Source: Dehalococcoidia bacterium
GTDB taxonomy: Bacteria; Chloroflexota; Dehalococcoidia; Bin125
Direction of reading: 5' to 3'
DNA: 64,000 nt
Assembly: GCA_963555985.3 (NCBI GenBank)
Contig: OY820591.1
Span: forward strand, 1,600,001 to 1,664,000
A program made the position numbers and the translations under genes. The notes beneath the pieces were generated by a model. It was not told where the DNA came from. It did no database searches and saw only the letters and a list, made by a program, of their open reading frames with translations. How positions within the stretch are numbered: position 1 is the first letter of the stretch; the number at the start of each line of letters is the position of its first letter. Shown here in pieces: positions 5,720 through 9,518 of the stretch.

Positions 5720-6076
5720 ATGGTGCTCGAAGACGTAGACAGCCAGTCGGAGGCCGCCCGCGCGGTCACGCCGATGTCGGAGATTCGGCGTCGAAAGTCG
5801 ATCACGCTTGACGAGTTTGATCGCCGCTATCCGGACCATGAGTGGACTGAAGGCCGCAAGGGGATCCTGTTGCAGGACCACCATGGCGGTCTCTGGGTGC
5901 CATTGGTCGACCCACTACACGGGCTGTACTACGAGTTCGATGATCCTGAGTTGACGCCGGAGATCGAGGAGGCGTTGGCCGAGGAGGCACGGAGGGCTCG
6001 CGAGGAGATTCTCGCTGGCGGTGGCATTGATTTTCGCGAGTTGGACGAAGACGAGTCCTTCTGGGCTGACGAGTAG
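5720..6076 (+). CDS. Putative antitoxin (acidic C-terminus), 118 aa
   Basis: GAGGAGG RBS before ATG 5720; very acidic tail ending REEILAGGGIDFRELDEDESFWADE; ends 6 nt upstream of a RelE-type toxin. Confidence 0.6.
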   Translation: MVLEDVDSQSEAARAVTPMSEIRRRKSITLDEFDRRYPDHEWTEGRKGILLQDHHGGLWVPLVDPLHGLYYEFDDPELTPEIEEALAEEARRAREEILAGGGIDFRELDEDESFWADE

Positions 6077-6082
6077 CGGTAA

Positions 6083-6346
6083 GTGCAACTCAAGGTCACC
6101 CTCAAGGAAGAAGCGAGGGCACAACTGCGTGTGTTGACTCCGGTACCGAAACGCGAAGTGCGAAGCACGCTGCGGGAGATGGAAGACGACCCGTACGGGC
6201 TGGACACGATTCCGCTGCAGCCGCCTTTAGATGGACTGTACCGAGTCCGCGTGGGCGACTACCGCATCATCTTCGAGCCTGGGCCTGGGCATCGGCAGGT
6301 CACGGTCACGCGGATCGGTCACCGCGATTGGGTGTATGAGGACTGA
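6083..6346 (+). CDS. RelE/ParE family type II toxin
   Basis: 87 aa; GLYRVRVGDYRIIF and VTRIGHRDWVYE motifs typical of RelE/StbE. Confidence 0.88.
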   Translation: MQLKVTLKEEARAQLRVLTPVPKREVRSTLREMEDDPYGLDTIPLQPPLDGLYRVRVGDYRIIFEPGPGHRQVTVTRIGHRDWVYED

Positions 6347-6511
6347 GGTTGTTCAGCGAAGAATTTTTTCTGGGCCTTTGGATGGGGTGCTTCGGCGACG
6401 ATCTCCTGTGTTTTACGGGGTTTTGTGCGATTTGGGATGGTCAGGATTGGTTAGGTTTGGTTGGCCCTGTTCAGTCGAGTTCAGTGTCGCTGAATCGTGG
6501 TCAAGTGTTGA

Positions 6512-6535
6512 GCGCGGCGGCCGAAACCGCCGCGC
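6512..6535 (-). terminator. 9-bp GC stem-loop (UUCG loop on minus strand) closing the pentamer array
   Basis: Minus strand GCGCGGCGG-TTTCGG-CCGCCGCGC; no clear U-tract, so it may be a 3' handle rather than an intrinsic terminator. Confidence 0.6.
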
Positions 6536-6608
6536 CCGTCCTTGCCCAACCCCGCCCTACCCTGCCGTGCCTGGCCACGCCATACCCAGCCGAGCCAAGC
6601 CTTGCCCT
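6534..6608 (-). ncRNA. Phased GGY-NN pentamer array (15 units); candidate guide RNA of a VIPR-like system
   Basis: Minus strand: AG GGC AA GGC TT GGC TC GGC TG GGT AT GGC GT GGC CA GGC AC GGC AG GGT AG GGC GG GGT TG GGC AA GGA CG GGC; first GGC lies 9 nt after the stop of the RAMP-like gene. Confidence 0.8.
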
Positions 6609-6615
6609 GAGATTG

Positions 6616-7215
6616 TCAGCTTATCTCATCGACCGCCAACACCTCAAACCTGCCGTAATGGCCACTCTTCTCGGGCCGCCAGTCGCCGAGTCCGATCCTG
6701 CGCGAGCCGATGTCCAGCCACGTTTCCAGTTGTTCCTGGTCGACGAGTTCATCATCGACCTCAATACGAAAGCGCGCTTCCCACTCTTCGAACATGGCGC
6801 GCGTGCGCAGGACGCGGTTGCGCTGCACGACAACTCCAGTGGTGAACTGCGCCTTCTTGCCGAGCTGCTCGACCGTCGTGCCGTAACGCTCGCGGTCGTA
6901 TTCGAACTTGGCGTCGCCGAGCACGATCAGGCCCTCGCGTACCTGCGGACCCTGCGTGAGTTTGCGAGCGGAGGTTTCGATCATAGATCGGAACGCCGTT
7001 CTCGGGATTGTCGGCGCTCCGCCCGCGTCGAGCCAAAGAGAGATTTGGCACTCGAGCTCGCGGAGTCGTTCTTCGTCGCTGGCGGTCCTGTTGGATCCCT
7101 TCTTGCGGGTGATTTCCGCCTTCTCGAGATTAGCAGGGCTGCGGGTGTCGAGTCCGGCCGCGCCGTTGTGCATGATGATCGGGCTGATGCCTCGGATGTG
7201 GATGTCGTACTCCAT
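6616..7215 (-). CDS. Orphan Cas7/RAMP-like RNA-binding protein (Vipr-like), 199 aa
   Basis: IHIRGISPIIMHN first strand, TIPRTAFRSMI helix, RTRAMFEEW, Gly-rich C-terminal loop IGLGDWRPEKSGHYGRFEV; RBS AGGAAGGA before ATG 7215. Confidence 0.78.
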   Translation of the reverse strand: MEYDIHIRGISPIIMHNGAAGLDTRSPANLEKAEITRKKGSNRTASDEERLRELECQISLWLDAGGAPTIPRTAFRSMIETSARKLTQGPQVREGLIVLGDAKFEYDRERYGTTVEQLGKKAQFTTGVVVQRNRVLRTRAMFEEWEARFRIEVDDELVDQEQLETWLDIGSRRIGLGDWRPEKSGHYGRFEVLAVDEIS

Positions 7216-7499
7216 GCCTGTCCGATTCCTTCCTCTACGGCTGCCAGGAGCGTGTAGATGTCGCCGCCGTTTCGGGTGAAGCGGCGGAGCGTGGTCGCAA
7301 TCTTGTGGCAAGGCCGGCAGAGCGCGGTGATGTGGTCGGCGCTGACGTTGCACTCGCAGGCGTCGGGTAGGTAGACGGCGAGCCAGTGGTGGCCTTCCTC
7401 AGCGGGGCGCTGTCCGCAGAACTGACAGACGCCGTTGGAGCGCTCGCGAGCGTCCTCTTTCGCCTTGCGGGTGTTGGGTCCGTCGGTGTTGTTGCACAT
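6981..7499 (-). CDS. HNH-like zinc-binding endonuclease
   Basis: ERSNGVCQFCG...EEGHHW...DHITALCRPCH; the domain occupies about the first 95 aa and the low-complexity tail overlaps the RAMP-like gene. Confidence 0.65.
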   Translation of the reverse strand: MCNNTDGPNTRKAKEDARERSNGVCQFCGQRPAEEGHHWLAVYLPDACECNVSADHITALCRPCHKIATTLRRFTRNGGDIYTLLAAVEEGIGQAWSTTSTSEASARSSCTTARPDSTPAALLISRRRKSPARRDPTGPPATKNDSASSSAKSLFGSTRAERRQSRERRSDL

Positions 7500-7570
7500 C
7501 GGTGGTTCTTTCGACCTTATGAGCGATGTTAGCTGGGATTGGTCGTGGAGACAAGGGTGGACTCTTTGAA

Positions 7571-7702
7571 TTCCCTCTCCCCCTGCGAGGGGAGACACAG
7601 AGGGGGGCGATCATCGCGTCGAGCAGATAGGTGACTCAGTGCGCAGCGCGGCGTTCTCACCCCCTCTGTCACTTCGTGACATCTCCCCCTTGAGGGGGAG
7701 AT
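7571..7702. repeat. REP-like palindromic repeat, copy 1 (about 130 bp)
   Basis: ctctccccc..ggggaga hairpin, acagagggggg / ccccctctgt inverted pair, gtcacttcgtgac and atctccccct-tg-agggggagat palindromes. Confidence 0.85.
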
Positions 7703-7715
7703 CGGGACGGCTCGG

Positions 7716-7847
7716 TTCCCTCTCCCCCCGCAGGGGGGAGATACAGAGGGGGGCGATCGTGGCGTCGAGCAGACAGGTGATTCGGTGAGTTGCGCGACGT
7801 CTCACCCCCTCTGTCACTTTGTGACATCTCCCCCTCGAGGGGGAGAT
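7716..7847. repeat. REP-like palindromic repeat, copy 2
   Basis: Direct repeat of 7571-7702 with the same nested palindromes. Confidence 0.85.
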
Positions 7848-8221
7848 TGGCTTTGCTCATGTTGTAGCTGGTTGAGGGTGTTGAGGATGGTGTCCAGCAC
7901 CGCGTCGGTCTCTGTGAGGGCTGTGTGGTTGTCGAAGCGCAGGACTTTGAAGCCTTGGGAGCGCAGATAGGCATCTCGACGCTGGTCGTAGGATTTGCGC
8001 TTGGCGTGCTGATCGCCGTCGAGTTCGACGACGAGGCGCGGGCTCAGGCAAGCGAAGTCGGCGATGTATGGGCCGATTGGGCGCTGACGGCGAAATCGGT
8101 AGCCTGCGAGTTGGCTTTGGCGGAGGCGCGACCAGAGCCGCTGCTCAGCGTCGGTGGCGTCCGTTCGCAACCTTCGGGCGAAGTGAGTGGTCTTGGGATG
8201 CTGTCGGAGTCTTTTGCTCAA
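7814..8221 (-). CDS. DUF559 / Vsr-like endonuclease domain protein
   Basis: ARRLR..TDAEQRLWSRLR, FRRQRPIGPYIADF, LVVELDGDQH, DQRRDAYL..GFKVLRFDN; probable TTG start at 8221 after AAGGA. Confidence 0.9.
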   Translation of the reverse strand: MSKRLRQHPKTTHFARRLRTDATDAEQRLWSRLRQSQLAGYRFRRQRPIGPYIADFACLSPRLVVELDGDQHAKRKSYDQRRDAYLRSQGFKVLRFDNHTALTETDAVLDTILNTLNQLQHEQSQSPPRGGDVTK

Positions 8222-8239
8222 CTGTGTCGTCCTTGTTTG

Positions 8240-8367
8240 CTCTCCCCCCGCAGGGGGGAGATACAGAGGGGGGCGATCGTCGCGCTGAGCAGATAGGTGA
8301 CTCAGTGCGCGGCGCGGGGTTTCACCCCCTCTGTCACTTCGTGACATCTCCCCCTCAAGGGGGGGAT
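8240..8367. repeat. REP-like palindromic repeat, copy 3
   Basis: Direct repeat of copies 1 and 2 on the other side of the DUF559 gene. Confidence 0.85.
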
Positions 8368-9518
8368 CAGGCCCCCACCGCAACCTTCACGTTCGCCGGC
8401 AACCTCGACGTGAACACCTCCACTGCCTCCCTGACCATCTCCTCCAACACTTCCGCCGCCGGACGCAGCTCGTGCAGCAATCCTGAGATCTGGCCCGCCG
8501 CGTTCATCAACAGGTCTTCCCGCTCGCCTTGCTTGGCAGCCTCTGCGATATCCGCAATGAGCAAACCTTGGAGACCCATCGGCAATGCTTGCGTGCCGGA
8601 GCCTTCCCATGCTTCGATGAGTTCGTTGGTGATGTTGCGCATGGTCTTGCCGGAGTACAGCCGCGTCACCCGCGTGTCTTCGTCGTTGGCGGCGAGGATG
8701 CGGCGCTTGCGGAACTCGTCGAGATTGGCCTCTTGGGTGGGGATGAAGACGGTGCCGCACCAGACGCCCACACAGCCCATCGCCAACGCAGCCGCTAATC
8801 CCCGACCGTCGCCGATGCCTCCGGCGGCGATCACCGGCTTGGGGCTGACCGCATCGAGCACCTGCGGGAGCAGGGCCATCGTGCCGATCCGGCCGGTGTG
8901 ACCGCCGGCCTCGTGACCCTGCGCGACCACGATGTCGGCGTTGCCGTCGGAGACGCGGCGGGCGTTCTTGACGTTGCCCACGAGTGAGATCACCTTGCCG
9001 CCCGCTTCGTGCACTTGATCGACGAACGGGGCAGGATTGCCCAAACCGGTCGCGAGTACGGGCACTCTCATGCCGGTGATCGTGTCCACCTGATCCTGGG
9101 GAGTGAAGCGGGGCACGCGCACATCGGCGCGCGGCGCCTGGACATCGGGCAGTTCGAGGTTGACGCGAATCTCGCCGATCAAGTCCTTGTGCTCTTCGGG
9201 GAGTAAGTCGCGCGGGTCTTTGGGGCGCTGGCGTCCACTCGGGCGGCTGGCGACGTTGGAGGGCACGAGAATGTCGACACCGAAGGGTCGATCGGTGAGG
9301 TCCTGGATGCGCTTGATCTGCGCTTCGAGACGGTCGGGCGGGAATCCGGCAGCGCCGAGCACGCCGAGTCCGCCCGCGTTCGAGATCGCCGCGACCAGCT
9401 CGGGCCCGGCGACGCCGCCCTGTCCGCCGCCCACGGTCGGCCCCATCCCGGCCAGACAGATCGGGTACTCGATGTCAAGCAGGTCGCAGAGTTCGGTGTG
9501 GAGGACGGGGCGGGTCAT
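8367..9518 (-). CDS. Nitronate monooxygenase / FabK-like flavin oxidoreductase
   Basis: YPICLAGMG, ISNAGGLGVLG, AQGHEAGGHTG, IAAGGIGDGRG, AGQISGL; start at ATG 9518. Confidence 0.9.
   Translation of the reverse strand: MTRPVLHTELCDLLDIEYPICLAGMGPTVGGGQGGVAGPELVAAISNAGGLGVLGAAGFPPDRLEAQIKRIQDLTDRPFGVDILVPSNVASRPSGRQRPKDPRDLLPEEHKDLIGEIRVNLELPDVQAPRADVRVPRFTPQDQVDTITGMRVPVLATGLGNPAPFVDQVHEAGGKVISLVGNVKNARRVSDGNADIVVAQGHEAGGHTGRIGTMALLPQVLDAVSPKPVIAAGGIGDGRGLAAALAMGCVGVWCGTVFIPTQEANLDEFRKRRILAANDEDTRVTRLYSGKTMRNITNELIEAWEGSGTQALPMGLQGLLIADIAEAAKQGEREDLLMNAAGQISGLLHELRPAAEVLEEMVREAVEVFTSRLPANVKVAVGA

Follow-up and report, generated by a model that had tools for sequence, protein, structure and literature searches.

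The stretch of DNA analysed here, 64,000 nucleotides of contig OY820591.1 (assembly GCA_963555985.3, from a Dehalococcoidia bacterium; hereafter the window, whose positions are used throughout), carries on its minus strand, from 7499 to 6510, a compact locus made of three parts: a gene that encodes a putative HNH accessory protein, a vipr gene that encodes a RAMP (Cas7-like) protein, and a pentamer array closed by a hairpin, which would form a guide RNA (vrRNA). An original prediction, drawn from the sequence alone, had linked these parts to the architecture of the recently reported VIPR (viral interference programmable repeat) systems, and had located an HNH open reading frame (ORF) starting at 7499, a 199-amino-acid ORF at 7215-6616, and an array beginning 9 nt after the stop codon of the latter. 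The three parts were found at these places and on this strand.

The vap-like HNH gene, named after the accessory (vap) genes of VIPR systems, extends over 6981..7499, with its ATG at 7499, and encodes a protein of 172 amino acids. Its start had been correctly predicted, and its end had to be corrected to the first in-frame stop codon, which is located at 6983-6981, inside the RAMP gene. The vipr gene occupies positions 6616..7215, with its ATG at 7215, preceded by a GAGGAAGGA stretch, and its TGA at 6618-6616. The two genes share a dual-coding stretch of 235 nt (6981..7215), in which vipr codons 1-78, read in the +1 frame, correspond to the tail of the HNH protein. The putative vrRNA comprises a guide part of 13 GGYNN units (6542..6606) and a 3' tail (6510..6541), in which the junction unit GGACG precedes a G+C-rich hairpin of 12 bp.

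The host genome (3.33 Mb, 65% G+C, 96% complete) contains a single copy of the HNH gene and of vipr, and only one RAMP gene. The Pfam model for Cas1, which was positive in 7 of 14 control genomes, gave no match in this 96%-complete genome (cas2, cas3 and cas10 were not searched), and a 22-mer spacing scan of the window revealed no CRISPR-like repeat; as far as these tests reach, the absence of cas1 and of a CRISPR array that had been claimed for the window holds. Outside the window, at C1:1758014-1758233, a 22-mer is repeated four times at an exact spacing of 66 nt, and this could be either a short tandem repeat or a CRISPR-like repeat.

The Vipr protein and the pentamer array

VIPR systems were made public in April 2026 (bioRxiv 10.64898/2026.04.26.720920) as the combination of Vipr, a minimal RAMP protein (RRM core, G-loop and thumb), with vrRNAs of about 100 nt that contain 9-16 YNNGG units and a structured tail, and whose NN dinucleotides recognise double-stranded DNA with one base skipped. 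A second VIPR preprint is devoted to structures and describes that Vipr polymerises along the guide RNA with a fixed period, a third one deals with a phage-satellite conflict, and a fourth one presents VIPR arrays recovered by a language model.

The protein collection contains at least 1,144 relatives of the 199-aa protein, and 45 of them were used to build a family profile. When compared with the PDB, this profile matched over its full length the chain 36pp_D, described as 'SUSP1 Vipr protein' (E 1.8e-20; profile positions 3-197 against chain residues 4-191 of 202). The protein also matched the PHROG family phrog_4652, of unknown function (E 8.1e-30), and a tblastn search retrieved 158 phage records, among them Felixounavirus-type phages, with 154 covering at least 80% of the protein. 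The Pfam scan assigned no family, and the PADLOC scan gave no meaningful match, to either the Vipr or the HNH protein.

RAMPs of the Cas7 group polymerise along their guide RNA with a fixed period. The structural model of Vipr obtained by AlphaFold2 with the family alignment reached a predicted local distance difference test (pLDDT) of 91.1 and a predicted template modelling (pTM) score of 0.87; a model made from the single sequence (pLDDT 35.5) was discarded. All the matches listed by Foldseek against the PDB were chains of CRISPR effector complexes, mostly of type III (Csm/Cmr), with types IV and VII also represented; the best was 9g9f_D (E 1.8e-5, template modelling (TM) score 0.54), and 63 matches were found at E <= 0.001. 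The RAMP fold, which the original prediction had set as its own test, is in agreement with this Cas7/Csm3 likeness. The predicted fold is common to Csm3/Cmr4 of the type III CRISPR-Cas systems (Foldseek probability 1.00, TM ~0.5), but the sequences are only 10-15% identical, the period is 5 nt here and 6 nt there, and neither a repeat-spacer array nor other cas genes, including cas1, accompany the gene in our locus. With one RAMP gene, no Cas1 and an array of 5-nt period, the locus does not belong to type III or to other Class 1 CRISPR-Cas systems.

A cryogenic electron microscopy preprint describes that the GGY bases are held in SUSP1 Vipr by residues H17, R138, D177, W178 and R179. According to the HMMER alignment, these residues correspond to H16, R139, D178, W179 and R180 of the 199-aa protein; all 45 family members have the last four, and 39 of the 45 have H16. 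In addition, an invariant loop, GLGDWRPEKSG, aligns with the G-loop of SUSP1, GVGDWRP. As judged from homology and from the structural model, the 199-aa protein is a true Vipr with a Cas7-like fold, and the polymer that it is predicted to form would place one protomer on each GGYNN unit. The match to VIPR made in the original prediction is thereby substantiated by the homology to SUSP1 Vipr and the Cas7-like fold, together with the GGY/NN array and its structured tail.

The array starts at 6606, 9 nt past the vipr stop codon, and contains 13 strict GGYNN units (6606-6542), whose NN dinucleotides are AA, TT, TC, TG, AT, GT, CA, AC, AG, AG, GG, TG and AA. The units GGACG, GGCGC and GGCGG follow in phase, which gives 16 GGNNN units, 15 of them GGY, as many phased GGY units as the original prediction had counted. 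The closing hairpin (6537-6510) has 12 bp and a 4-nt loop, and its 5' arm is made of the final units of the array, so that array and hairpin form an element of 97 nt (6606-6510). The RNA folding of 6615-6490 gave a z-score of -3.45, and none of 200 shuffled sequences equalled it. Elsewhere in the window there is a single further strict run, of 4 units, and the longest GGNNN runs elsewhere in the 3.33-Mb genome have 7 units (n=3); the array is not a chance product. Compared at the DNA level with the published vrRNAs, the number of units falls within the range of 9-16, the length is ~97 nt versus ~100 nt, and both have a structured 3' tail.

We have compared this locus with 69 related loci from one-per-species genomes. 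At least six strict GGYNN units were found within 1.5 kb downstream in 56 of the 69 loci (57 of 70 with the window), and the HNH gene in 48 of the 69; the original prediction had proposed to look for homologues with a downstream period-5 GGY array and with an upstream HNH gene. Among the 59 full-length relatives, 46 carry the HNH gene immediately before vipr; when the window is counted, this is the case in 47 of 60. Across the loci GGY is kept and NN is variable, even between close relatives, and many of the runs finish with GGCRR GGA, followed by a G+C-rich hairpin of locus-specific sequence (e.g., L003, L014, L019, L037, L042, and L056). Of 80 more distant relatives, 22-57% identical and located on viral contigs, 54 carry six or more units within 1.5 kb, 53 of these on the same strand, and the HNH gene was found only in L091 (57%). 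This IMG/VR contig of 42.9 kb carries the sole close relative on a contig classed as viral, and it ends right after vipr, so that an array is not visible.

The arrangement of the arrays varies among the related loci. Eleven of the 13 loci that lack such a downstream array were inspected. In six of them an array of at least six GGNNN units is located on the same strand a short way upstream, either ahead of the position of the HNH gene or inside it; L041 carries an array of 6 units ~770 nt upstream, L029 carries a downstream run of 6 units, and no array was found in the remaining three. The array is found upstream of the HNH gene, rather than downstream of vipr, in the closest relatives from Alphaproteobacteria and in some others, and these upstream arrays have 17-18 units (L001, 5535-5704, 17 units; L002, 5484-5704; L036, 5629-5718, 18 units). 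The number of runs per locus is one in 36 of 70 loci, the window included, and two to seven in 21 of 70. In L005, L006, L007, L040 and L043, 5-7 successive GGYNN runs, often interrupted by GGAAC or GGAAA together with several other bases, are located downstream of vipr (~6600-7250); unlike the single guide of the window, they are possibly multi-guide or staggered arrays.

Contigs assembled from four DNA runs of one study carry the locus unchanged. Other contigs of the same study (runs X1, X2, and X4) carry diverged vipr relatives that differ by ~12-16% (region 6546-6640). The alignments of these relatives skip 65-93 nt of the array and match the tail and the end of the gene; this hints weakly that strains or species that occur together may differ in their arrays.

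The HNH accessory protein and its overlap with vipr

The accessory protein begins with a zinc-finger HNH domain (about residues 1-95) and ends with a tail of ~78 residues. The motif residues are C25xxC28, H37-H38 and C61xxC64-H65. It matched 13 PHROG families, 12 of which are named HNH endonuclease (best phrog_144, E 3.5e-7), and the matches to the HNH families cover approximately the first 80 residues. In an alignment of 37 HNH sequences, with a mean column identity of 47%, no variation was found at residues C25, C28, G29, H37, H38 and C61, and C64 and H65 are conserved in at least 90%. The best match of the HNH profile among solved structures was 8yb6_A, the HNH domain of Cas5-HNH (E 3.4e-4, positions 3-68 against residues 276-339), followed by ZRANB3 (6.2e-4) and IscB (0.009-0.02). 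Judging from these conserved residues and relatives, the protein looks like an active nuclease, similar in kind to those that work with other RNA-guided complexes. The special tie to Cas5-HNH is only a lead, because its E-value is modest and the HNH domain of ZRANB3 scores almost equally. In the type I-E Cas5-HNH Cascade (8yb6; PMC11794572), an HNH domain serves, as it would here, a RAMP-based complex without Cas3; however, it is fused to Cas5 there, whereas the HNH is a separate protein with its own tail in our locus.

The HNH ORF has no stop codon before vipr, remains open through the vipr start and closes at vipr codon 77-78. We have analysed this overlap in 60 full-length loci including the window, 47 of them HNH-bearing and 13 HNH-less. 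The first stop codon of the +1 frame of vipr falls at codon 69-98 in 46 of the 47 HNH-bearing loci, the exception being L024 (codon 31), versus a frame closed by codon 21 in 11 of the 13 HNH-less loci (it stays open in L020 and L025). The +2 frame has many stops throughout. The identity at four-fold sites in the HNH-bearing loci is 0.535 inside the overlap versus 0.381 in codons 100-195, and in the HNH-less loci it is 0.493 inside the same stretch versus 0.499 downstream. When the codons of each gene were shuffled synonymously within that gene, the frame was equally open in a median of 0.244 of the trials per locus (range 0.006-0.754). The comparison of the 47 loci, which are kin, speaks in favour of selection on the second frame. 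We also considered a programmed frameshift leading to a fusion of the HNH protein with Vipr, and set it aside, since the long open +1 frame and its conserved end fit better with a read-through to its own stop codon.

The tail encoded by the overlap has a high content of Ser, Thr, Arg and Pro and is apparently disordered, and we propose that it could tether the nuclease to the filament or to DNA. The called proteins that resemble the HNH partner were only four (two of near length and two shorter), versus the at least 1,144 Vipr relatives, in a word-based search that may miss divergent members. The near-absence of the HNH protein from the annotations is likely due to the fact that gene callers reject long overlaps on the same strand. 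The main texts of two of the VIPR preprints, where the word 'overlap' refers to other things, contain no mention of an overlap between vap and vipr genes.

These observations suggest a more speculative proposal, which we consider tentative and rather doubtful as a whole: the HNH vap would be a hidden dual-coding gene maintained by selection, with its last 70-98 codons inside vipr, its Ser/Arg-rich tail would dock the nuclease, the clade may have been scored as lacking an accessory gene, and the HNH domain may share descent with that of Cas5-HNH. If this were true, the shared HNH descent would link VIPR and the Cas5-HNH Cascade, which are both RAMP-based, at the level of the nuclease too. The overlap also means that surveys based on annotations can miss the accessory gene, and its conservation points to where the contact between nuclease and filament may be sought.

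Placement among VIPR types and proposed mode of action

Seven VIPR types and six vap genes have been defined, and predicted nucleases or helicases are encoded by types III-V (10.64898/2026.04.26.720920). The same preprint describes types III and V as host-defence systems that target viruses, reports that self-targets were not found, infers target destruction for the nuclease-bearing types, and presents the location of type III in defence islands as an enrichment and not as a strict rule. It also reports that some systems have a single vrRNA and that 25.5% of the systems are found on cellular chromosomes, and the legend of its Fig. S21 places an HNH domain among the Vap proteins of types II, III and VII. 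Since the Vaps of types II and VII are called DNA binders there, we infer that the HNH vap belongs to type III, and the window system would be closest to this type. It resembles types III and V in its accessory gene for a predicted nuclease, in its location on a cellular genome and in the lack of a detected self-target, but it is not located in a clear defence island. As this kind of system, including its nuclease-bearing types, is already in print, the locus is a new member of VIPR and not a new system; the novelty that the original prediction implied with a 'nuclease-equipped variant' does not stand, because both types III-V and an HNH Vap had been described in that preprint.

The best studied system for comparison is the type II, represented by SUSP1 and by a Pseudomonas fulva prophage (10.64898/2026.04.26.720920, 10.64898/2026.04.26.720927). 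Vipr is homologous and the GGY-holding residues are the same in both, the identity being ~27% with the Vipr homologues of Felixounavirus-type Citrobacter and Shigella phages, and both have a GGYNN vrRNA with a structured tail, no CRISPR array and no cas1. They differ in that the accessory protein is an HNH here and a predicted DNA-binding Vap1 there, and in that our locus lies on a chromosome among housekeeping genes, in contrast to a phage. With respect to SUSP1, there is one vrRNA here versus four, and the tail is a plain hairpin here (pseudoknots were not searched for) versus a pseudoknot.

We conclude, with a probability of about 0.85, that the locus 7499-6510 is a complete three-part VIPR bearing a nuclease, standing alone on a bacterial chromosome and following the general VIPR mechanism. 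The homology, the fold, the conserved RNA-reading residues, the three-part architecture and the gene overlap support this conclusion directly. We further infer that the RNA is transcribed and processed, that the ribonucleoprotein assembles, that the 1-nt-skip rule applies here, that the HNH protein is active and recruited, and that the system has a role in defence. In such a scheme, the operon vap(HNH)-vipr-vrRNA would be transcribed and a vrRNA of ~97 nt released, capped by its 3' hairpin. Vipr protomers would bind it, one per GGYNN unit, with H16, R139, D178, W179 and R180 holding the GGY bases away and exposing the 13 NN dinucleotides, so that the filament would recognise double-stranded DNA that reads NNx 13 times, ~38 bp, with each third base skipped. 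The HNH protein, possibly tethered to the filament or DNA by its C-terminal tail encoded in the other frame of vipr, would then be recruited to the bound target and cut it, and the invading element would be destroyed and not merely silenced. The cutting step taken alone is, in our estimate, only somewhat better than an even bet.

The targets of the guide were searched under the published 1-nt-skip rule, i.e., AAxTTxTCxTGxATxGTxCAxACxAGxAGxGGxTGxAA, using exact seeds or up to 3 mismatches, versus the 80% match used in the scan of the preprint. In its own genome no target at 80% or more was found; the best reached 19/26, within the range of 8 shuffled guides, and the sole 26/26 match was the array itself, at skip 3. 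The full 13-unit pattern gave 0 matches in the viral contigs, and all five 9-unit seeds together gave L070, a 4.2-kb contig that is apparently A+T-rich in the 81 bases examined, at 22/26, and three matches at 19/26. At up to 3 mismatches, none of the 65 genomes belonging to the order and none of the 401 belonging to the class contained the guide. In the metagenome contigs a 10-unit seed gave 0 matches and a 9-unit seed gave 20, which extended to 18-22/26, i.e., 0-4 of the 8 remaining positions agreed versus 2 expected by chance. The guides of 41 related loci, compared with 5 Mb of sequence, fitted skip 1 no better than skip 2 (median best 0.73 for both). Every seed match extends at chance level, and the search is a blank, which is no evidence of absence.

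Several observations weigh against our conclusion. No target was found in any of the collections searched, and therefore the guide function of this RNA rests on homology. The position of the Asn of the HNH motif is occupied by His in the window protein and by Asp in most relatives, and the Pfam HNH models give no match to the accessory protein, so the activity of the HNH is not assured. No sigma-70-like promoter was found in 6300-7900, where Rfam likewise gave nothing near threshold and no ribozyme, and no RNA sequencing run was found to contain the locus. The setting is no obvious defence island, since beside the locus there are only a ParE and a DUF559 gene and the rest is metabolic. Finally, in the very G+C-rich vipr gene of the window the second frame is open in 0.668 of the synonymous shuffles; an open frame in the window alone is thus likely from its composition, and the window shows only that the HNH ORF ends inside vipr.

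The replaced Asn and the failure of the Pfam HNH models are also what could be expected if the system only bound its target, with a filament that blocks transcription as in SUSP1 type II and an HNH protein that is an inactive DNA-binding module or acts on RNA, and transcriptional silencing is the only activity of VIPR shown experimentally in three of the four VIPR preprints. We consider this unlikely, because the 37 sequences show little or no variation at the His-His pair, the C-terminal His and both CxxC, a pattern that one would expect from an active beta-beta-alpha-metal nuclease, because Cas5-HNH and IscB, the closest relatives of known structure, are active HNH nucleases of RNA-guided systems, and because the inference of target destruction for nuclease-bearing types (10.64898/2026.04.26.720920) points the same way. 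The cut could alternatively serve the module itself, if the RNA-guided HNH, in a manner similar to OMEGA/IscB, cleaved alleles free of the cassette and so favoured the spread or retention of a 1-kb selfish unit. The tiny size of the module, its position between unrelated housekeeping genes in the sampled loci and the 50-76% Vipr identity over many taxa, which argues for horizontal transfer, would agree with it; however, targeted empty sites would be expected among the 65 genomes of the order and the 401 of the class in which the guide is unmatched at up to 3 mismatches, no transposase or integrase lies beside the cassette in the window, and NN dinucleotides that are hypervariable between close relatives fit changing enemies better than a fixed homing site. 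This explanation is, in consequence, quite improbable.

A more trivial origin of the pentamers, as a simple repeat, a G-quadruplex-forming stretch or a terminator region without any guide RNA, deserves hardly any credit. GG runs at three-base spacing could form two-tetrad quadruplexes, and the strong terminal hairpin could be a terminator; against this, the 16 units contrast with a maximum of 7 elsewhere in the genome, the homologous gene is accompanied, on one side or the other, by the GGY/NN pattern in most of the 69 genome loci and in 54 of the 80 viral loci, and Vipr is homologous to a protein solved in complex with such an RNA. A complete nuclease-bearing VIPR thus remains the best explanation of the locus. 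The experimental study of VIPR presented so far in three of the preprints concerns the phage-borne, binding-only type II, and a single 13-unit guide, a Vipr of 199 aa and an HNH protein of 172 aa make a compact candidate for testing the cutting of targets by nuclease-bearing VIPRs.

Spread of the cassette and genomic neighbourhood

According to the record titles, the loci in metagenome-assembled genomes whose Vipr shares 50-76% identity belong to Dehalococcoidia, Alphaproteobacteria, Caldilineaceae, Binatia, Vicinamibacterales, Acidimicrobiia, Arenicellales and Thermodesulfobacteriota. Since the cassette is spread over many phyla of uncultured bacteria at this level of identity, it would move horizontally between hosts as a unit of ~1 kb. 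In seven related loci we have analysed the longest flanking ORFs (10 ORFs): seven were named by Pfam, all of them housekeeping (thiolase, short-chain dehydrogenase, nitronate monooxygenase, ribonucleotide reductase, RelA/SpoT, Lon, and DUF2298), and three remained unnamed. Among the loci scanned, only L003 has a neighbour in common with the window.

In the window, a ParE-family toxin gene (6083-6346, plus strand; Pfam E 4.6e-6) converges on the end of the vrRNA, and it is preceded by an ORF without Pfam match (5777-6076, plus strand) that may encode an antitoxin. Farther neighbours are two family III CoA-transferase genes downstream and, upstream, genes encoding a nitronate monooxygenase and a LysR regulator. 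The Pfam analysis of ~3.2-11.5 kb of the window detected no phage genes, integrase or transposase, in agreement with the earlier claim of a cellular chromosome without phage genes nearby.

On the upstream side, a DUF559 gene (7814-8383, minus strand) is located among palindrome-rich repeats. The palindrome-rich element is present in three copies of 133-146 nt (7571-7705, 7715-7850, and 8240-8367) that are 81-94% alike. A blastn search with this element gave 87 matches in the genome, and those listed beyond the three full copies correspond to cores of 45-57 nt; from its sequence, the element looks like a repeat of the repetitive extragenic palindromic (REP) or miniature inverted-repeat transposable element (MITE) type.

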